A DNA stretch of 64,000 nt. It comes from Bacillota bacterium (GTDB taxonomy: Bacteria > Bacillota > Clostridia > Oscillospirales > SIG627). Below, in pieces: positions 7,628 to 60,164 of the stretch; the first letter of the stretch is position 1, and each line of letters starts with the position of its first letter. The translations under genes and the position numbers were made by a program. The notes beneath the pieces were generated by a model. The model did no database searches and was not told the origin of the DNA. It saw nothing but the letters and a program-made list of their open reading frames with translations. The stretch is from contig JAQXGK010000032.1 of the NCBI GenBank assembly GCA_029006345.1, positions 8,566 to 72,565 of the forward strand. The letters are read 5' to 3'.

Positions 7628-7672
7628 ATTTATTATTCCTCCATTGAATAAATCATTCCAAAAGTACAAGTA

Positions 7673-7701: not shown

Positions 7702-7709
7702 TAGTATAT

Positions 7710-43983: not shown

Positions 43984-43999
43984 AGTTTATTCATCCTTT

Positions 44000-44593
44000 T
44001 TAATTAATATCGACTATATTCAATATTTTCAGTTCTCCTTCCGTCTCTCCGACAAGAAAATGCTGCGGAATTACAGCGTCGCTCGGAAGATCGGCGCGGA
44101 AGGTGCCGTTGTTGTACATTATTTTATATCGTACAATAAAATCCTTAACCTTAATATTCTCGCCTTTATACTCAAGCTCGAGATCCTCGACATAAGAAAC
44201 CTCTATGTCGTAAAGCTTCTGCATGGTGAATTTTTCGGGGGCAGGATTCTTATCGGTGAAATAATCAGACGCAATATAGCTTATATACTGCTGCGCGTCC
44301 CCATGCTTAATGCTGTCAAAAAATCTGTAGAAAAGCTTTCCGTATTCATCGGCGCTATCGTAATTGTTGCTGTCAAGCAATACGGAATATCCGCTTTCTA
44401 TATACTTAACATCGGTCACCTTATCGGTATATGCAGAATTTTCGAATATATCCTCGTCATAATCCGCCGGATACAGAAAGACCTCGCCGTCGTCATTTTC
44501 GCTGTAGCCGTCATTGTCAGAGCAAGCGCAAAACGACAGCATTGTAATCGCCGCGAGAACAAGAATCAACACCGAACACAATAGCTTTTTCAT
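44000..44593 (-). CDS. lipoprotein, unknown function
   Basis: Signal peptide plus lipobox (SFCAC). Begins 7 nt downstream of scfB. The antisense ORF 43952..44584 was rejected. Confidence 0.65.
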   Translation of the reverse strand: MKKLLCSVLILVLAAITMLSFCACSDNDGYSENDDGEVFLYPADYDEDIFENSAYTDKVTDVKYIESGYSVLLDSNNYDSADEYGKLFYRFFDSIKHGDAQQYISYIASDYFTDKNPAPEKFTMQKLYDIEVSYVEDLELEYKGENIKVKDFIVRYKIMYNNGTFRADLPSDAVIPQHFLVGETEGELKILNIVDIN

Positions 44594-44599
44594 AATTAA

Positions 44600-46000
44600 T
44601 CAGTTCCTTGAGAAGCTCTCAGCCGCCTTAACGAGAATAGCGCACTCGACGCGCTTGCGTTCAAGCTGACATCCAATCTCGTACGGCTTCTCAATATCCT
44701 TATTAAACTTATAGTTATTTGCACGGCATCCGCCGCCGCAGAAAAATCTTGCCCAGCACTTACTGCATTCGGGATTTTCAGTAACCGCGCTGTGTGAGAA
44801 CTTTCTTCTTATATTTTCGTCAAGCTTGCCGTCAAAAATATTACCCATCCTAAAATCAGTATCCCCGGCGAACTGATGGCACGGATAAATATCGCCGTTG
44901 GGAGTGATGGAAATATACTCGGTGCCGGAGCCGCAGCCCTTAATTTTCTTATATACGCAGGGTCCCTCATCCAAATCTATCATAAAGTGGAAGAAGGTAA
45001 AAGGATGTGCGTCTATAAGCTTACTGCCGTCGCAGTCACGTTTGATAATCTCCTTGGCAAGGCGCTCGTATTCGAGACATATTTTACGGACGTCCTTCTT
45101 GCGGATAGAATTTTCGTCGTTCTCATCCAGCACAACCGGCTCCACCGAAATTCTGTCGAAGCCTTCTGCCGCAAGACTTAAAACATCCTGTGTAAAATCA
45201 AGATTCTTTCTCGTAAAGGTCCCGCGGACAAAGTAATCCTTGCCTCCGCGCTCCTCAACAAATTTCTTGAAATTCGGCATTATGACGTCATAACTTCCGC
45301 TGCCGTCTTCCATTGGACGCATAGCGTCGTTCACTTCCCGGCGCCCGTCAACAGAAAGAATGACATTGGACATCTCATCGTTGAGAAGCTTTCGCTCCTG
45401 CTCCCCGAGGAGAACACCGTTTGTCGTGGTTGTAAAACGAATATTCTTGCCGTATTTCTTTTCCTCGGTTCTGCCGTATTCCACCAGCTTCTTTACGACA
45501 TCAAAATTCATAAGCGGTTCGCCGCCGAAAAAGTCAATCTCAAGATTTTTAATATTCATCGAGCGTTCGAGCAAAAAGTCTATTGCCTTTTTTCCGACCT
45601 CGAGACTCATAAGACTGCGGTCGCGGTTATAGCTGCCCTTGGAGGCGAAGCAATATTCACAGCGCATATTGCAGTCATGTGCGATATGAAGACACAGGGA
45701 CTTTATCGGCATTCGGTCATAATCGATCTTTGCCTTATCAAGCTCAGGCAGCTCGGAAAACAGCATTTTGTCCTTGTAGAGAGCAAGTATCTCGTTATAT
45801 GCATCGTGGATGAGGTCCTTATTGTAATTGGACAGCTCCTCGCAATTTTCAATTCGCTCCGGCACCTCGTCTTCAAGGGGAAGCGTCAGCATACCTGTCA
45901 TAATATAGACAAGATCGTTCACAATGTGAACGCAATTTGAATTTACATCAAGAATAATATTATAGCCGCACATTTTATAGCGGTGAATGAGTCTGTCCAT
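44600..46000 (-). CDS. scfB: radical SAM/SPASM SCIFF peptide maturase
   Basis: 466 aa. N-terminus HRYKMCGYNIILDVNSNCVHIV, CNMRCEYC cluster, and C-terminal SPASM cysteines (CSKCWARFFCGGGC). Lies directly downstream of a SCIFF precursor. Confidence 0.9.
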   Translation of the reverse strand: MDRLIHRYKMCGYNIILDVNSNCVHIVNDLVYIMTGMLTLPLEDEVPERIENCEELSNYNKDLIHDAYNEILALYKDKMLFSELPELDKAKIDYDRMPIKSLCLHIAHDCNMRCEYCFASKGSYNRDRSLMSLEVGKKAIDFLLERSMNIKNLEIDFFGGEPLMNFDVVKKLVEYGRTEEKKYGKNIRFTTTTNGVLLGEQERKLLNDEMSNVILSVDGRREVNDAMRPMEDGSGSYDVIMPNFKKFVEERGGKDYFVRGTFTRKNLDFTQDVLSLAAEGFDRISVEPVVLDENDENSIRKKDVRKICLEYERLAKEIIKRDCDGSKLIDAHPFTFFHFMIDLDEGPCVYKKIKGCGSGTEYISITPNGDIYPCHQFAGDTDFRMGNIFDGKLDENIRRKFSHSAVTENPECSKCWARFFCGGGCRANNYKFNKDIEKPYEIGCQLERKRVECAILVKAAESFSRN

Positions 46001-46021
46001 TTAATTTAACCGTCCTTACAC

Positions 46022-46057
46022 AAAAAAGTAACGGGGGTATGGTCCGTCCACACCCCC
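46022..46057 (-). terminator. intercistronic attenuator/terminator between scfA and scfB
   Basis: Reverse-strand GGGGGUGUGG-acgga-CCAUACCCCC (10 bp, including one G-U pair) followed by GUUACUUUUUU. Confidence 0.7.
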
Positions 46058-46071
46058 GCCAAAGTAAAACA

Positions 46072-46221
46072 TCAGTTCTTAGAATCTTTTTCGCACTTCT
46101 GATTTGCTACAGTGCAGGAAGTCTTGCAGGCTGACTGGCAGGAAGCCTGGCACTCACCGCATCCGCAGGTCTTAACATTTGCTTCGGATTTCTTAGAGTT
46201 GATTGTAATAATATTCTTCAA
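46072..46221 (-). CDS. scfA: SCIFF (six-cysteines-in-forty-five) ribosomal peptide precursor
   Basis: 49-aa ORF below the track cutoff. TTG start 8 nt after GAAGGGG. Translation: (M)KNIITINSKKSEANVKTCGCGECQASCQSACKTSCTVANQKCEKDSKN. Confidence 0.85.
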   Translation of the reverse strand: MKNIITINSKKSEANVKTCGCGECQASCQSACKTSCTVANQKCEKDSKN

Positions 46222-46249
46222 CGGTATCACCCCTTCTTTTATTAGTCAT

Positions 46250-46278
46250 ATATTATCACATAACAAGACAAAAATCAA
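46250..46278 (-). promoter_or_regulatory. candidate sigma-A promoter of scfA
   Basis: TTGATT-17 nt-TAATAT with TGa upstream of the -10, about 30 nt upstream of the scfA start. Confidence 0.5.
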
Positions 46279-46295
46279 TATGAAAAGAACAAAAA

Positions 46296-46748
46296 CTAAT
46301 ATTTTTTACGGCTTACATTTACTCTGCCCTTGCCCATGCGTTTTTTCTTAACTTTTCCGGCCTTAATCTTTGAAAGCAAAACGCCGATAATACTTGCTGC
46401 GGGAACCAGTGCAAGTCGCAGAATTATTGATTCAACGGCCGCCCGGCTGCCGCATATGAGCGATACCGCCAGCAAAACAAAGTCAAAAAACGTTCCGCAA
46501 ACAACCGCGTCAAAAAAGGGTTTGTCGTTTTTACGAAACATAAAAAACGACACGTCGAGCGCCACAAAGCAAATCGTCAGAGTGGCAATTATGTCAAAAC
46601 TGTTCTCTATCCGCACAAGCTTTACCGCAACGGCTGCAACAATCGCAAAAACTATTATAGAAAACGAAAAACAGAAAAAGGAAAACAGCAGAAGCTTTTT
46701 AACAACTCCGGAAATACCGTTTTCCTCTTTTCTTTTTAATGCTTGCAC
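46296..46748 (-). CDS. small 4-TM membrane protein with a Lys/Arg-rich C-terminus
   Basis: 150 aa. GTG start 7 nt after AAGGAGA. Four hydrophobic helices. Co-directional with its neighbours. The equal-length antisense ORF (46330..46782) was rejected. Confidence 0.6.
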   Translation of the reverse strand: MQALKRKEENGISGVVKKLLLFSFFCFSFSIIVFAIVAAVAVKLVRIENSFDIIATLTICFVALDVSFFMFRKNDKPFFDAVVCGTFFDFVLLAVSLICGSRAAVESIILRLALVPAASIIGVLLSKIKAGKVKKKRMGKGRVNVSRKKY

Positions 46749-46806: not shown

Positions 46807-49800
46807 TTATTCCTCTTCGGGAAGATGCACCGTCGGCTTGAGCGCCGAATAAACAGCTTCGAGTTGTCTTTCGGGGCTTACAAACCACTCGGTTTCAAAA
46901 ATTCTGACAACCTTCCACGGCTGACCGGCGAGTTTGTCGGCATACTCTATCTCTCTGTCATAAAAGCTCATTCCCGCACAGCCGGCAGAGCTGTCGAGTA
47001 CAACAGCGAGAATATACTCTCCGGGCTTGTCCGGATTCTCTACCGCCACGTCTGCAAAAAGCTTTCCGAAGCCGTATCCGATAACGCAGTTATAACCTTT
47101 TTCCTTCAAGCAATCGGCTATTTTCTCCGCAATCGGATTGCGGGTCTTAGCATTGCAGACCTCCGAAAGCAAATCTGCGCCGTTATACAGCTCAAGAACG
47201 AATTTTTTCATATACCTGTATCCGTCAGAGAAGCAGGATGCCCCAAGCAGAGTCGAAACTCCGAAAGACACGAAGGCGTGAACGCATTCGCGTGACATTG
47301 ACATAAGACTTGCAAAGCTCATGAAGCTGTTGCCCTTCAAAAGTGTGCGAAGCTCTCCGGTCATTTTGTCATAATAACGCGTCTTTTCGGGAAGCGCATA
47401 CGTCATTGATATCAGTATTATATCCCGAGGCTCAGTCGGCATATTTGAAATATCTCTGATAATAAGCGGCTCTGAAGTGTTAACAAACAGTTGGTCTCTC
47501 AAAGAGGCGTCTAAGCTTACGCGCTTTATCACCAAAGCCTCTATCAAATGCTTCTGAGAGGAATTCATCGCATATACGCAAATTGATTTACCCTCCCCGA
47601 GCGAAGCAATACGGGCTATCTCATCAACTACAGCCGCCGCCTCAACAAGGTTGGTTCTCGTACGTTCTACGTCAAAGCTGCCGTTAACGCGCGTAAGCTT
47701 CACGCCGTCGGTGGTTTTTGCCATCGGATATACCCCATACGGCTCGTCGAATCCGCAGGCCTTGAAGTATCGGTTGAGAAAAGCGGCGGAGCACATATTG
47801 CTGCCGCGATATTTTGTAAGTCTCTCCGTAGGCAATCCTATCTCCAAAAGCTCGCTCATAATAGACGTTTTATCAAAGCCTTCGAAATATCTGTTTTCCC
47901 AGTCAATACAAGCGCCTGTAAAGCGGCTGCAATATGCGCTGTTCCCGAGAAATACCAACTTTCTGCCCAGAGCAAACAGCGGTATGGCCTGTTCGCTTTC
48001 AATTTGGTCTGCGTCGTCGAAAACTATGTAATCAAAGGTAATGTCATCTTTTGATACGTAATCGAGCACGGAATCCTTCAGACTTACAAAGACGCTGTAG
48101 TATTCTTTGAGCTCAGGCAGATTATCTCTTACAGCATCTACCGTAACGCTTGTGCCGTCAAGGTCTGCAAGAGCCGCAGACTGCTTTTGCATACTGCTTG
48201 AAACAATGTCTTTTATATTGGAAATCAATATCTCATTTTTCTTATCGTAGTACTCGCGCGCCTTAGAGCAGAGCTCGAGATATTTTTCCTTGCCGAAATC
48301 CGACAGAACCGGCTCGCTTTCGATTAGAGCCTCGCACATAGTGCGGAAGAGCCCTTTCAAAAAGGCAGGCCTTATATTTGCCGAGTTGATTTCACCCGAC
48401 TCGAACATATTGACGGCTGAATCAAACCCGGCGGCAATCGCCTTGTCGCGCACATTCAGCCAGTTGACCCACTGCTTGAGACCGTCGAAGCCGTGCAGCA
48501 TATCTGTCTGCGAGGCAGGAAGATACTCAAACCAATCGGATCTGTGGTATTCCTTCTGCGAATAAATATCAAGTGAGACAGCGGCTACAAAATCACGCTC
48601 GGTTTCCTCGTAGGAGACAAATGCCTTCTTGATTTTATAAAGTTCATCCTTGTAACGGTGAGTGTCGCTGTTTTTCTGCATGAGTATGGAAACTATATTG
48701 TTCTTATCGACAGCCTCATTATGCAGTATGATTCTGAGCAGCTCACAGTAGCGCTCACAGTCGCGTTCGACCGCCTCAAAATTATCCCAAATCTCAGGCG
48801 TATCCCTGTCCGGGGCTGTAATATCGACTCCGAAATAACGTTCTATGAGTGCGGAATTATCCTTGACATAGTTTGTATATTCACGGTATTTCTCGACAGC
48901 GCGCAGTATATCCGACATATCGCCGCGGCTTATGCTCTTGCCCTTTCTGCAATATGAGCAAAGGCTTTGATACACCCTCTTCTGCACCGCTCTGCCCTTA
49001 AAGGTCAATTTGGATTCGCGGCACTCTAAGATGTACTCATGCGCGGGTATCGAAAAAATTTCGTCGGAGAAGGTTTCGGTCAGCTCTGCGCGCATCTTAT
49101 GACAGGACTTGCCGTATTCGATGACGGTTCTCAGCTTAGGTATGCTGGCAACTATATCGTCGTTATCAAAATAACAAAACGGTATTTCATTGTCGTTGCC
49201 TATGAGTTCGAGCAGCTCTATCAGAGCCTTTGTTTCTGCGAGCGTCTTAACTGTACTGTCAGGATAAAACAGCTTGATAATCTCATTCTGCGTAGAAATC
49301 AAATCGCGGGTTGCGCTGGCGTAGCTCTTGAGCATTGTAAGAGCCATGTCCTTTTTCTCATAGGACAGCTCCTTGCATCTGACAAACGACAGAGGATTGT
49401 TATGCACTTCTCCCGCTTCGCTTCCGACAATGGCCATTTCGGATATTAGTGAAAACCATTCGGCGAGTTTGTTCCTGTCAAGCGAAAGGACGCGTTCGCG
49501 ATTGAAATCAATACTTTTTTCGCTGTAGCTGTATTTCTCGTAACTGTGTATGGCGTCGGCGAGTGAAAAGCCGAACGCCCTCTTTTTATTGAGGACTTTA
49601 TAATACTCGCAAGCCGCGCGGGAGGCTTTTTGATAGCCGTCGAGCGCCGCAAACAGGTCGTCTTGTTCAGAGCAAAAATTAAATTCCTGTTTTATGGAAA
49701 ACTTGTTCGAGCGTGCTTTATTCAAATAGAGTACGGTATCTCCGAGACCTATTTTGTCAAGCTTGCGTCGGAAACCGTCGCAAAGCCGTCGGTCGGCCGC

Positions 49801-51771
49801 TACATACAATATGTTTTTTCGGCTCCTGGCGGCAGCACTCGCAAGATATGCCGCAACAGTCGTTCTTCCGCTGCCGGCCGCACCGTCGATTATACTGTAA
49901 TTACAGCTGTCGGCGCAGGCAACTGCCCTCACCTGCTCGTGAGTCAGCGGATACGGCGAATTTGTCTCGTATTTAAAAGCTTTTGACGAATCGAAGGAAT
50001 ATGTTCCCTTGTATTCTCCCCTGCAGATTGAATCGGAAAGCGCGTTTGAACGGAGGGTTTCGGGTGAAATCCTCATAGCCTTTTCATATGCATCCGCCTC
50101 AAAGAAGCCAAGATACATTTTTTCAAAGGAAAGCACTATTGTGTCAGTCATGGATACTGCGTCACGAAGCATATCGACAGAACGCTGAAGATCGCCTATT
50201 TCTCCGAGAGCAAACAGATTTATACCGTAAATATTCTGGATTTTTTCAAAAAGCGTCAGATTGAATACAGGGCTGTCGCTTTCAAACGAAATGCGATGCA
50301 GACCGGATTGATCCTTGGTCAGCCTGCAGGGAAGCAATATAAGCGGGCACTCATTTTCGCTGTCCGGCTCGCCGGTCCTGAGCCGTGCCGTGCCGAAGGT
50401 GATATATATATTACCTCCGCTTCCCGAGCCGTATTTTCGGTTGAGCTTGGATTTAAAATAACCGAGTCTGTTATTAAGTGCTTTTTTATCAAGCTCAGTA
50501 ACGATTGCACCGCCAATATCCACATCGGAATAGTCTTCGCGTTTATCAAGGATAATAAGACTGCTGTTGCTTTCCGCGATTTCCAAAAGACGGCCGTAGT
50601 TCTCCCGGCCTATAAGAAGGCTGTTGTGCTCATTAATATTCAACAGAGGGTTATCAGAGCTCATATCAAGCAGACGGCCGCGGTATTCTTTTGTTTTTTC
50701 AGAATAAACGTCAACTTCAGCGTCCTCGAAGCTATCCTTGACTTCCAATGCATCAAACGGAGATTTTCCGCGTTCAAAGCTGAGACCCTCGTCCGAATAT
50801 ATGCGCGAAGGAAGCGGAAGTATATGCTCTTTTCTCGCACGCTTGATATCTATGGCAATAATAAAATTCTCGTGATGTTCAAAGACTGCAAGCGCCATTT
50901 TACGTGAATTATCAAAAGAGATATTTGTTCCGTTAACAACACTCGACGGCTCAAACAGACAAACATTGCCGTTAGCACAAAGCTCTGTCAGGGTTTTGAA
51001 GCTGTCAATTACCGGTCCGTAAAAAATTTTATCTGTCAAATAGCAGCCGACTATGGCCTTGCCGCCGAAAATGATAAGCAAAGGATTAAAGCCCATCGCC
51101 TCTAAGCAGGAGGCATATAAAAGCGATATTTCAAGAGAATTTGCGCTCTTGTCATGTATCACGGCTTCCGGCAGCTTGAGCCTTTCTCCGACTTTATCGG
51201 TTGAAAAGGGCGTAATAGAATATGTTATTCTGAGTTCACGGACAGCCTCGTACAGTTGCTCAAGTTCAAGCTCGATATCAACAGCCGACTTTCCCTTGTA
51301 GCCGAGAACGGAGTTTTTGGTTCCGACATTCGACAGCACTTCCCTTATCTCGTGCTGAGCGGGTGTGACCAGCGCGGCAAGCAACTCGGGATGATTCTGA
51401 CATCCTCCCCACGCGTCAAATGAAATCAGCTCTATATTTTTTTTTGCCTCATCGATAAGCTCGCCAGCACAGTACACTCCGACATGAATAAAAGCATTGG
51501 TATCGGTGCTTAAATAAGCAAGTTTTGTAGAATCCGTCACAAGCTCCGGCGAAGCAAAGCTTACTACGGAATGAGCAAAGATACCGTTACAGCTCACCGA
51601 GTACGGCTCAAAAAATTCAGGTGTCGATGATACCTCTACGGTTATACCCTCATAAATTTCCGAGGTAAGATTCTTTATATAAATTCCGTCTATCGGAGCA
51701 ATTTTACTGCAATACATGGAATAGTTGAAAATACTTGAAGAATCGATGGTAATTTTCAGTCTGTCGCCCAT
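46807..51771 (-). CDS. giant DUF4011 / SF1 (Upf1-DNA2-like) helicase-like / Vsr-type endonuclease-like fusion protein (Hhe-like architecture)
   Basis: ORF 46807..51822 (GTG). ATG 51771 behind GGAAAGGAA is preferred, giving 1654 aa. DUF4011-like motifs (LLDMSSDNPLLNI, ECPLILLPCRL). P-loop GAAGSGRT at 49861..49884. Walker-B-like IVFDDADQ at 48004..48027. C-terminal REase-like block at 46873..47070. Confidence 0.8.
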   Translation of the reverse strand: MGDRLKITIDSSSIFNYSMYCSKIAPIDGIYIKNLTSEIYEGITVEVSSTPEFFEPYSVSCNGIFAHSVVSFASPELVTDSTKLAYLSTDTNAFIHVGVYCAGELIDEAKKNIELISFDAWGGCQNHPELLAALVTPAQHEIREVLSNVGTKNSVLGYKGKSAVDIELELEQLYEAVRELRITYSITPFSTDKVGERLKLPEAVIHDKSANSLEISLLYASCLEAMGFNPLLIIFGGKAIVGCYLTDKIFYGPVIDSFKTLTELCANGNVCLFEPSSVVNGTNISFDNSRKMALAVFEHHENFIIAIDIKRARKEHILPLPSRIYSDEGLSFERGKSPFDALEVKDSFEDAEVDVYSEKTKEYRGRLLDMSSDNPLLNINEHNSLLIGRENYGRLLEIAESNSSLIILDKREDYSDVDIGGAIVTELDKKALNNRLGYFKSKLNRKYGSGSGGNIYITFGTARLRTGEPDSENECPLILLPCRLTKDQSGLHRISFESDSPVFNLTLFEKIQNIYGINLFALGEIGDLQRSVDMLRDAVSMTDTIVLSFEKMYLGFFEADAYEKAMRISPETLRSNALSDSICRGEYKGTYSFDSSKAFKYETNSPYPLTHEQVRAVACADSCNYSIIDGAAGSGRTTVAAYLASAAARSRKNILYVAADRRLCDGFRRKLDKIGLGDTVLYLNKARSNKFSIKQEFNFCSEQDDLFAALDGYQKASRAACEYYKVLNKKRAFGFSLADAIHSYEKYSYSEKSIDFNRERVLSLDRNKLAEWFSLISEMAIVGSEAGEVHNNPLSFVRCKELSYEKKDMALTMLKSYASATRDLISTQNEIIKLFYPDSTVKTLAETKALIELLELIGNDNEIPFCYFDNDDIVASIPKLRTVIEYGKSCHKMRAELTETFSDEIFSIPAHEYILECRESKLTFKGRAVQKRVYQSLCSYCRKGKSISRGDMSDILRAVEKYREYTNYVKDNSALIERYFGVDITAPDRDTPEIWDNFEAVERDCERYCELLRIILHNEAVDKNNIVSILMQKNSDTHRYKDELYKIKKAFVSYEETERDFVAAVSLDIYSQKEYHRSDWFEYLPASQTDMLHGFDGLKQWVNWLNVRDKAIAAGFDSAVNMFESGEINSANIRPAFLKGLFRTMCEALIESEPVLSDFGKEKYLELCSKAREYYDKKNEILISNIKDIVSSSMQKQSAALADLDGTSVTVDAVRDNLPELKEYYSVFVSLKDSVLDYVSKDDITFDYIVFDDADQIESEQAIPLFALGRKLVFLGNSAYCSRFTGACIDWENRYFEGFDKTSIMSELLEIGLPTERLTKYRGSNMCSAAFLNRYFKACGFDEPYGVYPMAKTTDGVKLTRVNGSFDVERTRTNLVEAAAVVDEIARIASLGEGKSICVYAMNSSQKHLIEALVIKRVSLDASLRDQLFVNTSEPLIIRDISNMPTEPRDIILISMTYALPEKTRYYDKMTGELRTLLKGNSFMSFASLMSMSRECVHAFVSFGVSTLLGASCFSDGYRYMKKFVLELYNGADLLSEVCNAKTRNPIAEKIADCLKEKGYNCVIGYGFGKLFADVAVENPDKPGEYILAVVLDSSAGCAGMSFYDREIEYADKLAGQPWKVVRIFETEWFVSPERQLEAVYSALKPTVHLPEEE

Positions 51772-51805
51772 CTTTTTTGTCCGTTCCTTTCCGCAACGCC
51801 GTCTG

Positions 51806-51830
51806 CATGCGCAAAATGACACATGCGCAA
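51806..51830 (-). repeat. direct repeat TTGCGCATG x2 (16-bp period) in the leader of the giant gene
   Basis: Plus-strand CATGCGCAA at 51806..51814 and 51822..51830. Both copies are identical. Confidence 0.9.
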
Positions 51831-51850
51831 TTTATACGTCATTTTATACG
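51831..51850 (-). repeat. direct repeat CGTATAAA x2 (12-bp period) in the leader of the giant gene
   Basis: Plus-strand TTTATACG at 51831..51838 and 51843..51850. Both copies are identical. Confidence 0.9.
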
Positions 51851-51863
51851 ATTTATTTATATT

Positions 51864-51893
51864 ATTATACGGTCATTCAGTCATATATGTCAA
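51864..51893 (-). promoter_or_regulatory. sigma-A promoter of the giant gene
   Basis: Consensus TTGACA-18 nt-TATAAT on the reverse strand, just downstream of the terminator of the preceding operon. Confidence 0.6.
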
Positions 51894-51904
51894 TCAAAAT
51901 CAGC

Positions 51905-51956
51905 AAAAAACAACTAGAAAGCAGTGAAAAACGGTATTTTTCCGTTCTTCACTGCT
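51905..51956 (-). terminator. terminator of the amidohydrolase-VTC-DUF4956 operon
   Basis: 15-bp stem with 1 mismatch (AGCAGTGAAGAACGG/CCGTTTTTCACTGCT) followed by UUCUAGUUGUUUUUU. Confidence 0.7.
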
Positions 51957-52000
51957 AAAAAAGTCGTATTCATACTATCGCCGAGCATTTAATAATGGCG

Positions 52001-52678
52001 TTAAAGAAGCGTTGTCGCGTTAAAAGCGACTGCACTGACATTTCTTACTCCGTCAATTTCACGAAGACGTTCAATGCTGTTAAAGTCATTTTTAGACAGT
52101 TTGAGCTCTATAGCAAGCTCTACGCAATCGTCAACCGCGGTTTTCGAACGAATCTTGAACTTCGGGAAAGTATTTATGCATGCTTCGACCGCCTCTTTTG
52201 TCGCCGCCTCATAACGCAATACCAAAAGATACGTTGAGCTTCCGGTGCGGCAGTAAATAAAATGAACAAGCATATATAAAACCGATATTGCCACGGTGGA
52301 TAAAATGCTGATAAACACAAGACCCGCTCCGCACATAAGTCCTATAGAGATCGCCCAAAACATAAATATCGTATCGTTGGGCTCTTTGACAGCAGTCCTG
52401 AAGCGAACGATAGAAAGAGCTCCCACCATACCGAGCGAAAGCACAAGATTTGTCGATATGGTCATAATTATGGTAGAAGTAATAAGCGACAGCAGAATAA
52501 GACCTGCGGCAAATCCTTTGTTAAACGACACTCCGGAATATGTCAGTCTGTAAACAAACACCATAGCTAAAGACAGCACGAATGTAAGCAGCACAGCCGT
52601 GGCGATCCGTTCAACAGACAGCGAAGCGGAGAACTCATTTGAAAAATTTTCTTGTATTGTTTCGATAAGTTTCGACAT
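52001..52678 (-). CDS. DUF4956-family membrane protein (copy 2)
   Basis: 225 aa. SIVRFRT motif followed by the IFMFWAISIGLMCG helix. AAAGGAA SD in the 13-nt gap after the VTC gene. Confidence 0.7.
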   Translation of the reverse strand: MSKLIETIQENFSNEFSASLSVERIATAVLLTFVLSLAMVFVYRLTYSGVSFNKGFAAGLILLSLITSTIIMTISTNLVLSLGMVGALSIVRFRTAVKEPNDTIFMFWAISIGLMCGAGLVFISILSTVAISVLYMLVHFIYCRTGSSTYLLVLRYEAATKEAVEACINTFPKFKIRSKTAVDDCVELAIELKLSKNDFNSIERLREIDGVRNVSAVAFNATTLL

Positions 52679-52691
52679 AATATTCCTTTCA

Positions 52692-53390
52692 TTACAGGAG
52701 AAGTGAAAGACTCATGCAGTATTTTGAGCTTGAAGAAAGCGTAAGCGGCAAATCCTCAAACAAGTGGGAAATATGCGGCGGAAGAATACCGTTATATTTG
52801 ACCTCAAACACAGAGAAACCATCATCAAGCACCGGAAACCCGGCAACCTCCCTGCCAAAGAAATCGGTCGAATAGGCGCCGGATGAAATGCCGCTGTCAA
52901 GCGTCAGCCGCACGTCTCCTGTAGGAAATGTAAATGCAATGCGGCTGTAATCGACCAAAACCGAAGGGTGCAGACCTCTGTATCGGGACAAAACATAGAA
53001 TTCGCGAAGGAGAGGTTCGTTTGAACAGTTGAGACAGTCGCAGTCGCCGGACAGCATACCTTCGGCGAGCCGCGCCGAAACGCGCACACCGAGCTTATAC
53101 GATTTGTCCGCGCGCTTTTCCTTTTTCTCGAAAACCATGTAATCCGAATCGAGATTATAGCATCTCAATCGGTATTTAGTCCTGTTTTCGATACCGTTAA
53201 GCTTGCTGCGAAAAGCAGTCATATTTATATCGTCGAAATACAGGCTTCGCACAAGATACGGCTGAGATTTCCCGTAGTGTCCGTCAGAGTCGAGCGCGGC
53301 CGACAGTCTGCTCCTTAATATTTCATATACAGGGCGGCTGATAATAAACTTTTTTTCATCGCGCAAGGTTTCGCGTCTGTCAAGCATCAT
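52692..53390 (-). CDS. VTC-domain (polyphosphate-polymerase-like) protein (copy 2)
   Basis: 232 aa. RDEKKFII, SLYFDD, KYRLRCY and VFEKKEK pattern. The ATG overlaps the upstream stop (ATGA). Confidence 0.7.
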   Translation of the reverse strand: MMLDRRETLRDEKKFIISRPVYEILRSRLSAALDSDGHYGKSQPYLVRSLYFDDINMTAFRSKLNGIENRTKYRLRCYNLDSDYMVFEKKEKRADKSYKLGVRVSARLAEGMLSGDCDCLNCSNEPLLREFYVLSRYRGLHPSVLVDYSRIAFTFPTGDVRLTLDSGISSGAYSTDFFGREVAGFPVLDDGFSVFEVKYNGILPPHISHLFEDLPLTLSSSSKYCMSLSLLL

Positions 53391-54166
53391 TTGTTAAAAA
53401 TCCTGAGTGCGTTTTTGTATGCGACATCCGACACTCCCTCGTCGGACAGCGTCCCGGAGAATAGCTTGATCTGCTGCGGTTCAATCAGCCTGAACGGTGC
53501 GGTACTTGCGTAGCACATGCGCTTTTCGCCGACATACCGTACAGTGTCACTAAGAGTGCCGTTGTTAAAATCATCGAGACATGATATGTCGAAAAGAACA
53601 TTATCGCGGCGCGTAGCCTCCGCCCTCAGAGCGTCACCGAGATCGTAATTATAGTAACCGCATATAACTGTAGAGGTTTTTTCGCTTGACGAAATCAGAT
53701 TGAAGAGCTGTTCCCCCGTCGGCTCATAAAATGTGTCGAAAACATTTCTTCCCCGGATGTTCTCAAAGCCCGCCGCAACCTTAAAGACAAGCCCCAGTTC
53801 GCCGCATAGCCGATAAAGCTCGCGGGCGCTCGGACAGTCGGCGGCATATTTGTGATAGCCCGGAGCTATTTCCACTCCCTTAAAGCCCAGCTCTGCGCAC
53901 TTCTTCAGATCGGTCTTCCATTCGATATATATCGGATTGATCACGGCAAAGGGATAAAACTCAACTCTGCCGACGTACGAGCCCAAGCTTTCTGTCAGCT
54001 CGATATTGCCCTCCATGCAATCGCGGTAAAATACGGAATTCAGATTTGTAACTGCCGCACAATCAGTCAGATTATCACTGAGCTCGCAGGAAAGCTCATC
54101 AAGCGTCGATATTTCGATTTTACGAAAAGGCCAGTGGCCGATGTAAGTAGATAAGTCAAACAGCAT
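53387..54166 (-). CDS. amidohydrolase-fold (TIM-barrel) protein lacking the N-terminal HxH
   Basis: 259 aa. Begins MLFDLSTYIGHWPF. The barrel-like alternation of strands and helices resembles amidohydrolase-2 relatives. Weak call. Confidence 0.6.
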   Translation of the reverse strand: MLFDLSTYIGHWPFRKIEISTLDELSCELSDNLTDCAAVTNLNSVFYRDCMEGNIELTESLGSYVGRVEFYPFAVINPIYIEWKTDLKKCAELGFKGVEIAPGYHKYAADCPSARELYRLCGELGLVFKVAAGFENIRGRNVFDTFYEPTGEQLFNLISSSEKTSTVICGYYNYDLGDALRAEATRRDNVLFDISCLDDFNNGTLSDTVRYVGEKRMCYASTAPFRLIEPQQIKLFSGTLSDEGVSDVAYKNALRIFNK

Positions 54167-54167
54167 T

Positions 54168-54995
54168 TTACCTGTCCCGCCCCCTCGTCAAAAAGCGCAT
54201 ATAGCGTTTTCCGCTCAATATGGTCTTTTTATCTTCGTCAGAGATTTTTGCCGCAAGCAGCTTGCCTACACCCGAGCAAACCGAACCGTCTGTCCCGAAC
54301 AGGATGCGTTCGGCTCCGAGAAGAGACACGGCCTTCTCTATACAATGCGAATCAATTACGCTTCCGCTTATATCTATCATTATATTTTTATAAGGCACGA
54401 TCGGCTTGAGCTGCCAGTCCCAGTCTCCACCGCCCGTAAGATGCGCCATAATGATGTTCAGCTCCGGATAACGGTGCGCTATAGCGGCGAAATGCTCGCC
54501 GGATGAAATTCTGGGCTGACTCTCGGGCTGAAAGGTCAGCTTTCCGGCATGTACCAACACCGGTATGTCGAGCTCAATACACTTTTCCATAACCGGGTAC
54601 TGCACCTCATCGTCGATAAAATACTGATGGTACATCTTTATTCCAACCATACCGAGCCGGCGAATACAGCGTTCGATCTCATCAAGACAGCCGTCAGCTC
54701 CGGGATTGACAAAGCACAAGCCTCGGATTAGCTCAGGGTAACGCTGCATTTCACCGAAAAGTATATCGTTCTTGCGGCGCATAGTCTCTAGCGGGCAATG
54801 CGGGTCGCCGGTCTCCGGCGTGGAGCAAACCAGTATATCCATGCCGTATTTGCGGGCTCCGCGCACAAGCCGGTCAAGGTCGCTTCGGAAGCACTCGCCT
54901 ATGGGGTTTTCCCATACGTGCTCATGCCAATTGACTACGGTATTATTGTAAAACAGCCGCAAATCGCCGTTAATTTTCTCTTTCAACGTGTCCAT
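54168..54995 (-). CDS. amidohydrolase-2 family metal-dependent hydrolase
   Basis: ORF trimmed to ATG 54995 (MDTLKEKI). HEH at the N-terminus (NWHEHVW), VHAG, MAHLTGG and FGTDGS motifs. Confidence 0.7.
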   Translation of the reverse strand: MDTLKEKINGDLRLFYNNTVVNWHEHVWENPIGECFRSDLDRLVRGARKYGMDILVCSTPETGDPHCPLETMRRKNDILFGEMQRYPELIRGLCFVNPGADGCLDEIERCIRRLGMVGIKMYHQYFIDDEVQYPVMEKCIELDIPVLVHAGKLTFQPESQPRISSGEHFAAIAHRYPELNIIMAHLTGGGDWDWQLKPIVPYKNIMIDISGSVIDSHCIEKAVSLLGAERILFGTDGSVCSGVGKLLAAKISDEDKKTILSGKRYMRFLTRGRDR

Positions 54996-55116
54996 ACGAC
55001 AGCCGCTCTCTTTCAAAATAATATATATTGATATTCTACCATTTATCTGCTTTCTTTTCAATAGTAACCTATATTCCGAACAAAATGTTTTTTAGTAAAA
55101 AATATGCGACAACATG

Positions 55117-55145
55117 TTGAATTTATATGCTCGTTGTGATATTAT
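55117..55145 (+). promoter_or_regulatory. candidate sigma-A promoter of the decarboxylase operon
   Basis: TTGAAT-17 nt-TATTAT with TGa (extended -10). The leader is about 100 nt. Confidence 0.5.
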
Positions 55146-55250
55146 AGTTGTAATCGTTAAAATGGGGAGAAAGGGGTGTTTTTATCAAACTTTCCTTTCT
55201 GAATACCCTTGTTTTGATAGTATTTATTTAAGTTGGAGGTAGACAACAGT

Positions 55251-56711
55251 ATGCAAACACAAAAAAAGCAAGCCTCTGTTGACGCGCTATTTGAAGCTGT
55301 TGCTGCGAACGAAAAGAAGATGCGAGCCGAGCTTTCAAAATCAGGCAAGCTGACCGCGAGAGCAAGACTCGAAGCACTTTTCGACGAGCAGTCATTCACG
55401 GAGATAGGAGCATTCAACAGCCGTACAGCCGGCAACCCCGCCGACAGTGATAGAATTGTAGCGGGATACGGCGCCGTAGACGGCAGACTTGTATTTGCAT
55501 TTTCACAGGAATTTTCACAGGAATTGGGTGCCTTTGGAGAGGCGGCGGCAAAAAAGATTTGCTCCCTTTACGAGCTTGCCGTTAAGAAGGGTTCGCCGAT
55601 TATAGCAATGCTGGATTCAAACGGTGCCAAGCTTGAGGAGGATGTCTCCCTGTTTGCAAGCTACGGCAAAGTTATTAAAAAAGCCGCCGAGTCCAGCGGA
55701 GTAATCCCTCAGATTGCCGTTGTTTGCGGCGTATGCAGCGGTGCTCTCGCTCTTTTTGCCGGCAACTGCGACTTTATTATCGCCTGCGAAAATAACTCGA
55801 GCATGTTTCTAAACTCACCCGCTAAAATCAAATCGCTCAATAAAGCAAGAGAAGACTTTTCAACAGCGTACGATACCGCAGCAAACGGAATATCGGCTAT
55901 CACCTGCTCAAACGAAGACCAGGCGATTTTTTCGGCAAAGAAGCTTCTCTCTTTGCTTCCCTCTAATAACGAAGACGGCGCTCCGAACTACGACCAGTCA
56001 GACGATGTAAATCGCAAGACCGCCTGCTTCTCAAGTGCGGACACAAGCATTGCCTTTGACGCGGCAAGCGTGATTGCCGATCTCGCCGATTCCGGCGATG
56101 TCTTTGAGCTTTATTCAGACTTCGCGCCCGAGCTCAAAACCGGCTTTATCACACTCGGCGGCCAGTCCTGCGGATTTATAGCCAACGACCCGACGGTTTC
56201 CGGCGGCAAGCTTACGGCAAATGCCTGCAAGAAGGCTGCCAGAATGGTTGACTTCTGCAATCTGTTCGACATCACGGTAATAAATCTTATAAACACCGAG
56301 GGCTTTGACGCTGAAAACGAAGCAAACGGCAACCTTATAACTCCGGCAAGCGAGCTTGCCCTCGCATATTCGCTCTGCGAAGCACCGGTAATCACTCTTG
56401 TAGTCGGCAAAGCATACGGCAGTGCCTTTACGGCGCTTGCCTCCAAGGAGCTTGGCGCAGATGTCGTTTTTGCCCTTCCCTATGCCGAAATCAGCATTCT
56501 GTCACCGGAAACCGGAGTGTCGTTCCTCTGGAATGATAAGTTCGCGGATGTAAAGGATGCGATAAGCGGAAGAAATGAGCTTATAGCAAAGTGGAGACAA
56601 GACAACACTTCTCCCGTTGCAGCCGCCTCCTGCGGACTTATAGATGATATTATCCGACCGGAGGAAGCGCGTCAGCGTTTGATATCGGCCGTATATATGC
56701 TGAATAAATAA
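55251..56711 (+). CDS. carboxyltransferase-domain protein (acyl-CoA carboxylase beta / methylmalonyl-CoA decarboxylase alpha type, divergent)
   Basis: ORF 55233 (TTG) trimmed to ATG 55251. Two crotonase-like halves are recognisable (FAFSQEF...DSNGAKLEE...; ANDPTVSGGKLTANACKKAARMVDFCNLFDI...VVGKAYGSAF). Confidence 0.8.
   Translation: MQTQKKQASVDALFEAVAANEKKMRAELSKSGKLTARARLEALFDEQSFTEIGAFNSRTAGNPADSDRIVAGYGAVDGRLVFAFSQEFSQELGAFGEAAAKKICSLYELAVKKGSPIIAMLDSNGAKLEEDVSLFASYGKVIKKAAESSGVIPQIAVVCGVCSGALALFAGNCDFIIACENNSSMFLNSPAKIKSLNKAREDFSTAYDTAANGISAITCSNEDQAIFSAKKLLSLLPSNNEDGAPNYDQSDDVNRKTACFSSADTSIAFDAASVIADLADSGDVFELYSDFAPELKTGFITLGGQSCGFIANDPTVSGGKLTANACKKAARMVDFCNLFDITVINLINTEGFDAENEANGNLITPASELALAYSLCEAPVITLVVGKAYGSAFTALASKELGADVVFALPYAEISILSPETGVSFLWNDKFADVKDAISGRNELIAKWRQDNTSPVAAASCGLIDDIIRPEEARQRLISAVYMLNK
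55501..55524 (+). repeat. perfect 12-bp tandem duplication inside the carboxyltransferase CDS
   Basis: TTTCACAGGAAT x2, encoding FSQE-FSQE. Confidence 0.9.
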
Positions 56712-56725
56712 GGAGGAGTCTCATC

Positions 56726-57034
56726 ATGTGGGAAATTGCAGAGAGTGCCTCCTTCCTTGAAAAGCTCGCCTTCGGCGGCAAGGTTACCCTGTTCGGTCTT
56801 GGCACTGTATTTTCTATTCTTTTTATCGTTTTGAAAATACTCGGCTTTATTTTTGACCGTCCGAAAAAGGCAGAGGAACCCAAGGCCGAGCCCAAAGCGA
56901 TAGAGCCTATCAAGGAAAAGGTTGAACTCAAGAGCGACGATTCCGAGCTTGTAGCGGTAATTGCGGCGGCAGTGGCGGCTTATACCGGCGCAAGTTCAGA
57001 TTCCTTCAGAGTGGTTTCATTTAAGAGAAAATAA
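56726..57034 (+). CDS. OadG-family small membrane subunit of a Na+-translocating decarboxylase
   Basis: 102 aa. One TM helix ([15 protein letters not shown]), a Lys/Glu/Pro linker, and a C-terminal [11 protein letters not shown]. Confidence 0.6.
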
Positions 57035-57087
57035 CATTTTCAAAAGAAAGGTATTTTCCGGCTGTAAGCCGGAATCAGGAAAAAACC

Positions 57088-57468
57088 ATGAAAACATATT
57101 CCATAACCGTTAACGGCAAGACATATGAAGTTTCCGTTGAGGAAACAGGTGCTTCGAGCACACCCGCAGCGGCACCCAAGGCCGCTCCGGCAGCAGCTCC
57201 CAAGGCTGCATCCGCGCCTGCTCCCCAGGCAGCGCCCGCAGCTGCTCCTGCCGACGGCACACCGGTCAACTCGCCCATACCCGGCACCATACTCGACATC
57301 AAGGTTGCAAACGGCGCCAGCGTAACCAAGGGCCAGGTTCTTTGCATACTTGAAGCCATGAAAATGGAAAACGAAATCGTTTCTCCGATTGACGGAAAGA
57401 TTGCAAGCATCAATACAACAAAGGGCGCGTCTGTCAACTCCGGCGATCTGCTCTTTGTAGTAGCATAA
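57088..57468 (+). CDS. biotin carboxyl carrier protein (biotinyl domain with Ala/Pro linker)
   Basis: 126 aa. EAMKMENEI biotinylation motif. N-terminal mini-domain plus an (A/P)-rich linker. Confidence 0.85.
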
Positions 57469-57521
57469 TCAATAGTATGTAAAGGATTGTCTCTGTTGTA
57501 CGGAGATAAAAGGTCAAAGAT

Positions 57522-58712
57522 ATGTTAGAACAAATCGAAAGCTTCCTTGCAGGCACGGGTATCGCCAAGCTGTTCGGCTCTCCGGAAGCAGCAATAAAGA
57601 CCTTGATTATGTATGTCATTGTCGCAGTTCTTTTTTATCTTGCTATAGTCAAGAAATTCGAACCGCTGCTTCTTTTACCGATAACCTTCGGCATACTGCT
57701 TGCAAATCTTCCCGGAGCAGGTTTAATTCATATGGACTTCTTCATCCACTCGGACGGCAGCCCGATTGATATAGTGCAGATAGTTCAGGAGGGCAATCTG
57801 CTCGACTTCCTGTATCTGGGCGTCAAGCTCGGTATATATCCGCCGCTCATATTCCTCGGAATAGGCGCGATGACCGACTTCTCTCCCCTGATTTCCAACC
57901 CGAAATCACTCTTCCTCGGCGCTGCAGCCCAATTCGGAGTTTTCGCCGCATTCACAGGCGCTATACTGCTCGGCTTTAACGCGCTTGAGGCTGCTTCCAT
58001 CGGTATCATCGGCGGTGCCGACGGCCCCACGGCGATATTCGTAACAAAAACTCTCGCTCCGGCTCTGCTAGGCCCCATAGCCATCGCGGCTTACTCATAT
58101 ATGGCGCTTGTGCCTTTTATTCAGCCGCCTATCATGAAGCTGTGTACGACAAAGAAAGAGCGAGCTATAGAAATGAAGACTCTCCGCACGGTATCTAAAA
58201 CCGAGCAGATTCTCTTCCCTGTCATAGTAACTCTCGTTGTCTGCCTGCTTATTCCCGACTGTGCGCCGCTCATCGGCATGCTGATGCTCGGAAACCTGTT
58301 CCGTGTCAGCGGTGTTGTCGACAGAATCTCAAAAGCAGCTCAAAACGAGCTTATGAATATTGTAACCATTCTGCTGGGCGTCTCGGTAGGCGCTACTGCA
58401 AATGCAAATACATTCCTGAGCGCCAAGACGCTGTATATCGTCTGCCTCGGTCTCGCTGCGTTTGCGTTTGCCACCCTCGGCGGCGTGCTTTTCGGCAAGC
58501 TTATGTGCTTCCTTACCCACGGTAAGGTCAACCCGCTTATCGGCTCTGCCGGTGTTTCCGCTGTTCCGATGGCGGCCCGTGTAGCGCAAAAGGTCGGCAG
58601 TCAGGAAAATCCGACCAACTTCCTGCTCATGCATGCCATGGGTCCGAATGTTGCGGGTGTTATCGGCTCTGCCGTAGCCGCCGGAGTATTTATTACTCTG
58701 TTCAGTCACTAA
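57522..58712 (+). CDS. Na+-translocating decarboxylase beta subunit (OadB/MmdB/GcdB family)
   Basis: 396 aa polytopic protein. GGADGPTAIF and GSAGVSAVPMAARV motifs. Confidence 0.9.
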   Translation: MLEQIESFLAGTGIAKLFGSPEAAIKTLIMYVIVAVLFYLAIVKKFEPLLLLPITFGILLANLPGAGLIHMDFFIHSDGSPIDIVQIVQEGNLLDFLYLGVKLGIYPPLIFLGIGAMTDFSPLISNPKSLFLGAAAQFGVFAAFTGAILLGFNALEAASIGIIGGADGPTAIFVTKTLAPALLGPIAIAAYSYMALVPFIQPPIMKLCTTKKERAIEMKTLRTVSKTEQILFPVIVTLVVCLLIPDCAPLIGMLMLGNLFRVSGVVDRISKAAQNELMNIVTILLGVSVGATANANTFLSAKTLYIVCLGLAAFAFATLGGVLFGKLMCFLTHGKVNPLIGSAGVSAVPMAARVAQKVGSQENPTNFLLMHAMGPNVAGVIGSAVAAGVFITLFSH

Positions 58713-58769
58713 TGCTTGCACCGGATAAACCGGAAATCTATCTATTATAATTTATTTAAGGAGAACAAA

Positions 58770-60164
58770 ATGGGCGTTAAAATTACAGAAACCGTACTTC
58801 GTGACTCCCATCAGTCGCTCATCGCAACAAGAATGACGACTGAAGAAATGCTTCCCATCCTCCCTGCGCTCGACGAAGTAGGATATAACGCGCTCGAATG
58901 CTGGGGCGGTGCCACATTCGACGCATGCCTGAGATTCTTAAATGAGGATCCCTGGGAGAGACTCCGCAAAATTCGCGATAAGGTTAAAAACACTAAGCTT
59001 CAGATGCTTTTCAGAGGCCAGAACATTCTCGGATACCGTCATTATGCCGATGATGTAGTAGAGTACTTTGTCCAGCGTTCAATAGCAAACGGCATCGACA
59101 TTATCCGTATCTTTGACGCGCTTAACGACAAACGCAATCTCAAGGTTGCAATTGATGCGGCTAAAAAGGAAAAAGGACATGTTCAGGCAGCCTTCAGCTA
59201 TACGACAGGTCCCGTTTATACGCTCGAATACTTCACAAACTTTGCGCGCGAGCTTGAAGAGATGGGTGCGGATTCAATCTGCATCAAAGATATGGCTGGT
59301 CTTCTCAAGCCGTATGACGCATATGATCTCGTAAAGGCGCTCAAGGAAACCGTAAAGGTTCCGATAGAGCTCCATACCCACTATACCTCCGGACTCGCTT
59401 CCATGACGGCGCTCAAGGCTGTTGAAGCAGGCGTCGATATAATCGACTGCGCCATCTCGTCGTTTGCCATGGGTACCAGCCAGCCGCCCACAGAACCGAT
59501 TGTCGCGGCTCTTCAGGGCACTGAATACGACACGGGACTTTCACTTGAAAAGCTCGACGTAATTTCAAAATACTTCACTCCCCTTCGCGAGAAATACATC
59601 GCCTCAGGTCTGCTCGACCCGAATGTGCTCAAGGTCAATGTCAATGCTCTGCTGTATCAGGTTCCCGGCGGAATGCTTTCCAACCTTATTTCACAGCTCA
59701 AGCAGGCAGGCAGCTCAGATAAACTGACAGAAGTTCTTGAGGAAGTACCGAGAGTCCGTGCGGACGCCGGCTATCCTCCGCTTGTAACTCCGAGCTCACA
59801 GATAGTCGGAACACAGGCGGTTCTCAACGTTTTGAACGGTCAGCGTTATAAAATGGTGACAAAGGAATTCAAGGGACTTATCAAGGGCGAATACGGCAAA
59901 GCTCCCATGGATATCAAGCCGGAATTTGTAAAACAAATCATCGGCGACGAGCCCCGGATCACAGGCCGCCCCGCCGATGCTCTCAAGCCCGAGCTTGACA
60001 AGCTCCGCGAGGAATGCAAGCCGTATATCGAGCAGGAAGAGGATGTCCTTTCCTACGCTTTATTCGAGCAGGTTGCCGTTAAATTCTTTGAAGCAAGAAA
60101 AGCGGCAAAATACGGTATTGATATAGACAATGCCGACGCGGACAAGAAGATACACACCGTATAA
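58770..60164 (+). CDS. oxaloacetate decarboxylase alpha / transcarboxylase 5S-type carboxyltransferase, without a biotinyl domain
   Basis: ORF trimmed to ATG 58770 behind AAGGAGAA. ITETVLRDSHQSL...CIKDMAGLL...HTHYTSGLA (HMGL-like TIM barrel). Ends without an AMKM motif. Confidence 0.9.
   Translation: MGVKITETVLRDSHQSLIATRMTTEEMLPILPALDEVGYNALECWGGATFDACLRFLNEDPWERLRKIRDKVKNTKLQMLFRGQNILGYRHYADDVVEYFVQRSIANGIDIIRIFDALNDKRNLKVAIDAAKKEKGHVQAAFSYTTGPVYTLEYFTNFARELEEMGADSICIKDMAGLLKPYDAYDLVKALKETVKVPIELHTHYTSGLASMTALKAVEAGVDIIDCAISSFAMGTSQPPTEPIVAALQGTEYDTGLSLEKLDVISKYFTPLREKYIASGLLDPNVLKVNVNALLYQVPGGMLSNLISQLKQAGSSDKLTEVLEEVPRVRADAGYPPLVTPSSQIVGTQAVLNVLNGQRYKMVTKEFKGLIKGEYGKAPMDIKPEFVKQIIGDEPRITGRPADALKPELDKLREECKPYIEQEEDVLSYALFEQVAVKFFEARKAAKYGIDIDNADADKKIHTV

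Follow-up and report, generated by a model that had tools for sequence, protein, structure and literature searches.

Two separately conserved gene pairs, AH1-AH2 and VTC-DUF4956, probably joined in a single operon of a Bacillota bacterium

This study examined a 64-kb stretch of DNA from a Bacillota bacterium (contig JAQXGK010000032.1, positions 8,566 to 72,565; hereafter the window), in which four minus-strand open reading frames (ORFs) are packed at 52001..54995. As read from the ORF list and the sequence, they encode, in order of transcription, two proteins of the amidohydrolase fold (AH1 and AH2, together the AH pair), a protein with a VTC domain (here called VTC) and a membrane protein of the DUF4956 family (here called DUF4956). 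The genes and the signals around them are as follows.

54168..54995, minus strand: AH1, 275 amino acids, Amidohydro_2 family, full metal-ligand set
53387..54166, minus strand: AH2, 259 amino acids, diverged Amidohydro_2 partner without the HxH motif
52692..53390, minus strand: VTC, 232 amino acids, soluble Vtc4-like triphosphate-tunnel domain
52001..52678, minus strand: DUF4956, 225 amino acids, MgtC-like membrane protein
55033..55061, minus strand: promoter-like site, TTGAAA-17-TAGAAT with TG, 38 nucleotides 5' of the AH1 start codon (a consensus match only)
51920..51956, minus strand: terminator-like hairpin, 15 pairs of which 7 are G-C, with a T-rich tail, 45 nucleotides past the DUF4956 stop codon

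An earlier note on this DNA, made from the sequence alone, had described the genes as packed almost without gaps and closed by a single terminator, and this description was borne out in full. AH1 and AH2 are separated by a 1-nucleotide gap at 54167 (TAA-A-ATG), the VTC start codon overlaps the AH2 stop codon in an ATGA at 53387..53390, and a 13-nucleotide spacer containing AAAGGAA lies between VTC and DUF4956, before 52678. The hairpin at 51920..51956 was recovered as well, and the motifs quoted for the first, third and fourth products (NWHEHVW; RDEKKF/YFD/KYRLRCY/FEKKEK; SIVRFRT) were all found in the translations. In a consensus scan, the site at 55033..55061 was the sole minus-strand promoter-like site positioned to drive the four-gene unit, and no promoter-like or convincing terminator-like sites were found on the minus strand between the four genes; a weak terminator-like match inside DUF4956 (52442..52419) is of a kind no commoner here than in shuffled sequence. 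Rfam gave zero matches to a riboswitch or leader RNA at E<=1 in 51700..55400. An alternative TTG start for AH1 is present at 55061, and gene callers on contigs of the same species choose the ATG that gives 275 amino acids. Spacing of this kind is ordinary for bacterial operons and in itself not remarkable; judged from the sequence, the four genes are likely co-transcribed.

Profile searches against Pfam assigned the four products, in order, to Amidohydro_2, Amidohydro_2, VTC and DUF4956, as had been anticipated from the motifs. AH1 matches Amidohydro_2 (PF04909) with E=2e-22 and 80.7 bits and carries the metal ligands H24, H26, H149, H185 and D236 (HxH/H/H/D), each of which is kept in at least 96% of 56 AH1 relatives. 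AH2 had been taken for a related barrel without HxH. It scores just over the threshold of the same family, with E=7e-8 and 33 bits (cut-off 26.4), yet HxH is lacking, and the residues conserved in its own family are D4, Y8, G10-H11-W12-P13-F14, N77-P78, Y104-H105, R138 and D144. The best sequence matches of AH1 in the PDB are weak (LigJ hydratase and gamma-resorcylate decarboxylase), a sequence search of the PDB with AH2 gave zero matches, and NCBIfam returned no specific name for AH1, AH2 or VTC. Close homologues of AH2 are scarce; a profile search of 1.84 billion representatives reached 1006 clusters at E<=1e-10, the clusters being drawn at 50% identity. Natural fusions of the two proteins occur in both orders (AH1-AH2 in P0277 and P0321, AH2-AH1 in P0283), which supports AH1-AH2 as a physical unit. 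The two proteins would work as one complex, possibly a metal-dependent hydrolase, hydratase or decarboxylase acting on a small molecule that is probably sugar-derived. No description of a two-barrel AH1-AH2 arrangement, or of a characterised member, was found in the searches made.

The neighbourhoods of AH2 were surveyed by scanning metagenomes with the AH2 alignment and taking the best 80 of 326 matches (L095-L174). In 74 of these 80 loci, AH1 is the gene immediately upstream of AH2, and in the remaining six there are at most a few hundred bases to the contig end, or AH1 is displaced. Otherwise the pair keeps varied company, mostly genes with a link to sugars, including DegT aminotransferases, GH9, esterases, SusD and GFO_IDH_MocA. 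The AH1-AH2 family was found in marine, sediment, soil and fermentation metagenomes.

In the closest homologues of AH2 (46-48% identity), AH1 and AH2 are kept together with an identical 1-nucleotide junction, in the gene order radical SAM, polysaccharide deacetylase, AP_endonuc_2, a gene without assigned function, PhosphMutase, AH1, AH2, and VTC and DUF4956 are absent. L009, L011 and L096 have in unbroken order, with identities to the window genes in brackets, radical SAM (60%), a 197-amino-acid gene, PhosphMutase (61-63%), AH1 (about 50%) and AH2 (44-48%). The window orthologues of the first three of these genes (60%, 37% and 61-63% identity) lie at 42751..46000 on the same strand, with 8 kb between them and the AH pair; in this lineage that pair has therefore been parted from its usual neighbours. 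By gene order, the AH pair is a separate conserved module, independent of VTC-DUF4956. Beside these findings, it can be recorded that the minus-strand block at 42751..46748 in the window (DUF3792-like, radical SAM/SPASM, 197-amino-acid and PhosphMutase-family genes) is syntenic with L009, L011 and L096, that a diacylglycerol-kinase-like gene (41810..42742) comes after PhosphMutase in the window, in place of the AH pair, and that L011 carries three tandem AH1 paralogues at 5460..8783, each about 50% identical to the AH1 of the window, ahead of a single AH2.

The VTC protein matches Pfam VTC (PF09359) with E=1e-31 and 110.7 bits (cut-off 23) over profile positions 2-234 of 235, and a profile of 27 VTC homologues searched against the PDB retrieved the catalytic domain of yeast Vtc4 (3g3q) at E=3e-12. 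Its AlphaFold model (pLDDT 92.5) is a closed beta-barrel tunnel fold, for which the 13 best PDB fold matches are all tunnel-domain chains of the yeast VTC complex (10 of Vtc4, the rest of Vtc2/Vtc3; E of about 1e-13). These are headed by 3g3r/3g3q with TM up to 0.73, and other proteins of the CYTH/triphosphate tunnel metalloenzyme (TTM) class rank lower. Ten residues of Vtc4 (K200, R264, R266, K281, Y359, R361, R373, E426, S457 and K458) correspond to K14, R74, R76, K90, Y148, R150, R161, E196, S222 and K223 of VTC, respectively; across the 27 homologues, K14, R74, R76, K90, Y148, R150, R161, E196 and also K198 are invariant, and S222 and K223 are kept in at least 90%. We take Vtc4 K200, R264, R266, K281, E426 and K458, together with their neighbours, to be needed for activity. 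From the Vtc4 fold and the identity of these residues, VTC is predicted to lengthen a phosphate chain within the basic tunnel, the gamma-phosphate being taken from a nucleoside triphosphate. Reviews treat polyphosphate polymerases of the VTC type as eukaryotic enzymes.

DUF4956 matches its Pfam family (PF16316) with E=8e-11 and 42.5 bits (cut-off 30.6), and a search for its homologues reached E<=1e-5 in 7995 of 8000 scored candidates. Four transmembrane segments had been proposed for it earlier, a count that the AlphaFold model (pLDDT 79) does not sustain: the model begins with an N-terminal helix, continues with about five helices of membrane length and closes with a C-terminal beta-alpha-beta-beta-alpha-beta domain, the helices spanning residues 22-144 and the ACT-like domain approximately 148-218. 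In a fold search, the C-terminal domain matched best to the C-domain of M. tuberculosis MgtC (2lqj). The profiles for MgtC/SapB score below threshold, with E=1.7e-6 and 27.8 bits against a cut-off of 214 for NCBIfam NF007431 (residues 74-215) and 16.4 bits against a cut-off of 31.4 for Pfam PF02308. As modelled, DUF4956 is thus MgtC-like, and the relationship is only a distant one; an MgtC-like nature was likewise concluded for S. intermedius SIR_1592 (bioRxiv 10.1101/2024.04.20.589940). The SIVRFR motif (residues 89-94), invariant in the family alongside FMFWA and GAG, lies where the third membrane helix ends and presumably faces the cytoplasm. The obligate adjacency to VTC, the Arg-rich SIVRFR motif and the ACT-like domain suggest that DUF4956 would anchor or regulate VTC at the membrane, and it may hand the product across. 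DUF4956 was also considered as a homologue of the Vtc1-type channel and rejected as such, with no VTC-complex chain among the 50 listed fold matches and only the C-terminal domain matched; this is a weak negative, because the membrane part may have no solved structure to match. The pairing of tunnel enzyme and channel that the earlier note suggested for VTC and DUF4956 is thus no more than a candidate reading, DUF4956 being closer in likeness to MgtC than to channel subunits of the Vtc1 type.

For the neighbourhoods of VTC, the VTC alignment was run against a single representative genome of each species, and the closest 80 of at least 596 matches (L015-L094) were surveyed. In 75 of these 80 loci, DUF4956 is the immediate same-strand neighbour of VTC, and contig ends truncate at least three of the remaining five; a gene of the CotH family is present in 67 of the 80, and the resulting trio is spread over Paenibacillus, Clostridia, Erysipelotrichaceae, Bacteroidota (Alloprevotella, Muribaculaceae) and other taxa. 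The first result upholds the earlier statement that soluble bacterial VTC proteins commonly sit beside DUF4956; the second shows CotH kinases travelling with the two, a co-occurrence that the earlier note had raised as a possibility. Pairs without CotH make up 13 of the 80 loci, about seven of them with ample flanking sequence. The closest VTC homologues found in the protein database are arranged CotH-VTC-DUF4956, and the second-closest relative of the window pair (L180; 46% identity for VTC, 57% for DUF4956) has the C-terminus of a CotH protein directly upstream of VTC. Plasmid loci in RefSeq carry the series 'CotH kinase family protein / polyphosphate polymerase domain-containing protein / DUF4956 domain-containing protein', and one of these loci belongs to a cluster for exopolysaccharide. 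Few glycosyltransferases were present among 101 annotated neighbour proteins of the VTC loci, a count that was accompanied by no systematic check for adjacency to pel.

The CotH-VTC-DUF4956 trio is already catalogued in the literature, as a set of accessory genes in the pel loci of Gram-positive bacteria (PMC7112168). In S. intermedius, the trio comprises a secreted CotH-like kinase (SIR_1594), a VTC-like polymerase with catalytic residues (SIR_1593) and an MgtC-like protein with an ACT domain (SIR_1592), and the combination was reported as not seen outside pel operons (bioRxiv 10.1101/2024.04.20.589940). The NELoc-2 locus of C. perfringens also includes the trio (PMC2879425; PMC11677781). The earlier view that no described system has the composition found here therefore stands for the four genes together and fails for VTC plus DUF4956, with or without CotH (PMC7112168; bioRxiv 10.1101/2024.04.20.589940; PMC2879425). 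Its companion statement, that the function of bacterial VTC proteins had not been demonstrated, agrees with the literature searched, in which no functional study or demonstrated activity of a bacterial VTC protein or of the trio was found. VTC-DUF4956 is the core of a widespread and already catalogued bacterial CotH-VTC-DUF4956 cluster, of which the window holds an unusual arrangement: no CotH-like sequence was found anywhere in the 64 kb with nine CotH seeds, and the four-gene unit is flanked by a carboxyltransferase operon and a helicase-nuclease gene, not by pel or glycosyltransferase genes.

Other metal-dependent hydrolases were noted near VTC loci. In L006 and L008, Lactamase_B comes after CotH. 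A purple-acid-phosphatase-like metallophosphoesterase (Metallophos + Pur_ac_phosph_N) lies near seven Paenibacillaceae loci, six of them from Paenibacillus, where it appears to be the divergent ORF upstream of VTC-DUF4956-CotH, at about positions 6.5-7.8 kb of the loci (L017, L023, L024, L029, L039, L048 and similar). These phosphatase-like neighbours may point to phosphate esters or polyphosphate as a theme of the VTC module.

The two surveys, set side by side, bear directly on whether the four genes form one system. An Amidohydro_2 neighbour of VTC was found in none of the 80 genome loci (seven AH seeds, and Pfam on the 101 neighbour proteins), and VTC, DUF4956 or CotH was found within 7 kb of AH2 in none of the 80 metagenome loci. 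This lack of co-occurrence and the separate histories of the two pairs give no support to a dedicated pathway of four genes. The locus is probably transcribed as one unit in which two independent modules of two genes each, both conserved on their own, have been joined by a lineage-specific operon fusion, a reading to which we assign a probability of roughly 60%. As far as the 160 surveyed loci show, the AH pair appears joined to VTC-DUF4956 in this species only; the identical four-gene arrangement recurs in all contigs of the same species (L176-L179), which are not independent observations. The earlier note had taken the tight coupling to the amidohydrolases as the mark of a dedicated pathway and had named a linkage unique to one genome (chance adjacency) as refuting the module. 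The neighbourhood survey finds the linkage unique to this species; by that criterion the four-gene module is refuted as a conserved system, and the inference from tight coupling to a dedicated pathway is unsupported. In this species, the usual upstream CotH is missing and the AH pair has been set ahead of VTC instead; the four genes are probably co-expressed, yet form no conserved pathway.

Several points weigh against this reading of a fusion between two independent modules, and against the enzymatic role assumed for one of them. The start/stop overlap (ATGA) at the AH2-VTC boundary is exact and has the look of having been selected. Genes of one operon are usually related in function, which leaves room for a lineage-specific link. 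For the closest relative by DUF4956 (L175, P0062; 61%), the contig spans only 2.5 kb and breaks off within VTC, which leaves the gene upstream unseen, and as the surveys covered the best 80 of at least 596 VTC matches and of 326 AH2 matches, rare co-occurrence among remoter ones could escape them. Experimental polyphosphate synthesis by any bacterial VTC protein was not found in the searchable literature. None of the results demonstrates conduction by DUF4956, for which the fold search matched the C-terminal domain alone and gave no likeness to a VTC channel subunit. Finally, deletions of the S. intermedius homologues (SIR_1592-1594) had no clear phenotype (bioRxiv 10.1101/2024.04.20.589940).

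Among the alternatives, a dedicated pathway, in which VTC would make a product, DUF4956 would export it and AH1/AH2 would prepare the substrate or trim the polymer in CotH's place, draws on the single promoter-like site, the single terminator and the 4-nucleotide start/stop overlap between AH2 and VTC, on the presence of the arrangement in each contig of the same species, and on the other metal-dependent hydrolases beside VTC modules (Lactamase_B in L006/L008 and the phosphatase-like genes at seven Paenibacillaceae loci). These contigs are, however, non-independent, and the pathway is difficult to reconcile with the two counts of zero in 80: no VTC locus has Amidohydro_2, and no AH2 locus has VTC, DUF4956 or CotH. 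Each pair also keeps different company among its near relatives, with CotH upstream of the VTC pair in L180 and the AH pair placed after PhosphMutase, and the AH pair shows autonomy in its own fusions and its varied sugar-related neighbours. No phosphoesterase is among the Amidohydro_2 members matched. Combined, these results make a dedicated pathway improbable. A private functional link between the AH pair and the VTC pair, confined to this lineage, is given about one chance in ten, and the same low standing goes to the proposal that AH1-AH2 has functionally taken over the partner role of CotH in a minimal bacterial module of polyphosphate synthase and membrane protein. If that replacement were true, the four genes would synthesise a phosphate polymer delivered at the membrane and would trim or remodel it; no counterpart of such a system has been described. 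The opposite extreme, that the AH pair and the VTC pair merely abut and are expressed separately, would suit their unrelated evolutionary histories; it is very improbable, as the VTC start lies inside the AH2 stop codon and so leaves no space for an intergenic promoter, and AH2 itself contains no minus-strand promoter-like or convincing terminator-like site.

The main rival concerns what the VTC pair does. Here, VTC-DUF4956 would be no polymerase and exporter: the tunnel would belong to a triphosphate or polyphosphate hydrolase, to another TTM enzyme or to a polyphosphate sensor, and DUF4956 would be an MgtC-like regulator, for example of ATP or phosphate homeostasis. The TTM/CYTH superfamily consists mostly of hydrolases and cyclases, and the next-best fold matches of VTC are of this type (ygiF, SaTTM, AtTTM3 and CyaB-like). 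The VTC of the window has neither an SPX domain nor Vtc1-type membrane subunits, and DUF4956 is related to MgtC, which has been described as a regulator rather than a transporter (bioRxiv 10.1101/2024.04.20.589940). Against this stand the invariant or nearly invariant counterparts of all ten checked Vtc4 residues and the ranking of the fold matches, in which the 13 best, all tunnel domains of the yeast VTC complex, come ahead of the hydrolase-type TTMs. The hydrolase or sensor role is accordingly viewed as unlikely, though less so than the other alternatives, and the fusion of two separately conserved modules, one of them built around a putative polyphosphate polymerase, is preferred.

The window holds a second VTC-DUF4956 pair, as listed here.

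31740..32495, minus strand: VTC2, 251 amino acids, 29% identical to the first VTC, Pfam VTC E=1e-38, tunnel residues kept
31079..31756, minus strand: second DUF4956, 225 amino acids, E=5e-18, overlapping VTC2 by 17 nucleotides, SIVRFR kept

Neither CotH nor AH genes lie beside this pair, and VTC-DUF4956 is therefore a self-sufficient core. A tyrosine recombinase gene (32667..33692) comes immediately before this second pair, which is about 30% identical to the first, and QueT comes after it. Two VTC-DUF4956 pairs are likewise carried by L080, and two VTC pairs with a recombinase between them are found in NELoc-2 of C. perfringens (PMC2879425).

Downstream of the four-gene unit, a minus-strand gene at 46807..51822 encodes a 1671-amino-acid helicase-nuclease (DUF4011 / MTES_1575) that matches candidate defence families of PADLOC (PDC-S37, E=2e-85; Hhe, E=1e-35). 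A perfect TTGACA-18-TATAAT promoter-like site for this gene lies at 51893..51864, just past the operon terminator. The same helicase-nuclease gene (52% identity) comes after DUF4956 in L175, and TerB_N, BrxC/BrxD and a DEAD helicase come after DUF4956 in L001. A role of the four genes themselves in a defence system was considered and rejected, with zero PADLOC matches among them and only the downstream 1671-amino-acid gene matched. On the other side, divergent from the unit, the plus-strand genes at 55233..60164 encode a carboxyltransferase (Pfam), a small ORF that is OAD_gamma-like in contigs of the same species, a biotin-lipoyl protein, a membrane protein and another large subunit; judged from the ORF translations, the group resembles an operon for a Na+-pumping decarboxylase.

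Soluble bacterial VTC proteins that keep all of the checked Vtc4 tunnel residues and have an MgtC-like partner are very common in Bacillota and are also present in Bacteroidota. If it is true that such proteins make polyphosphate, they would provide a third bacterial route beside PPK1 and PPK2, one tied to surface-polysaccharide loci and to a pathogenicity locus. The contribution of the window to this question is small and consists of two CotH-free copies, with the pair as an autonomous core. The most promising by-product of the analysis is the AH1-AH2 module, a widespread and apparently uncharacterised two-barrel amidohydrolase.

Comparison with known systems places each part of the locus near a described family and apart from it. 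AH1 shares with the Amidohydro_2 enzymes (LigJ 4-oxalomesaconate hydratase, gamma-resorcylate decarboxylase) the family match and the HxH, H, H and D ligands; it differs from the solved members in its low and partial identity (E=1e-7 over about 95 residues) and in being accompanied by a second, HxH-less barrel, AH2, to which it is at times fused. DUF4956 has the architecture of the MgtC/SapB/YhiD family, with a helical domain in the membrane and, after it, an ACT-like domain in the cytoplasm, whereas its own invariant motifs, its obligate VTC neighbour and scores far under the family cut-offs set it apart. With Vtc4 of the yeast VTC complex (PDB 3g3q/3g3r, 7ytj, 8i6v), the VTC of the window has the tunnel fold and the ten checked residues in common. 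Unlike Vtc4, it is a single domain of 232 amino acids without an SPX domain or a fused transmembrane domain, and in place of Vtc1/2/3-type subunits the adjoining membrane protein is of an MgtC-like family. The CotH-VTC-DUF4956 clusters (SIR_1594/1593/1592 of S. intermedius and NELoc-2 of C. perfringens) share with the window the two core genes on one strand; outside any pel setting, the window instead has the AH pair at the position that CotH usually holds.

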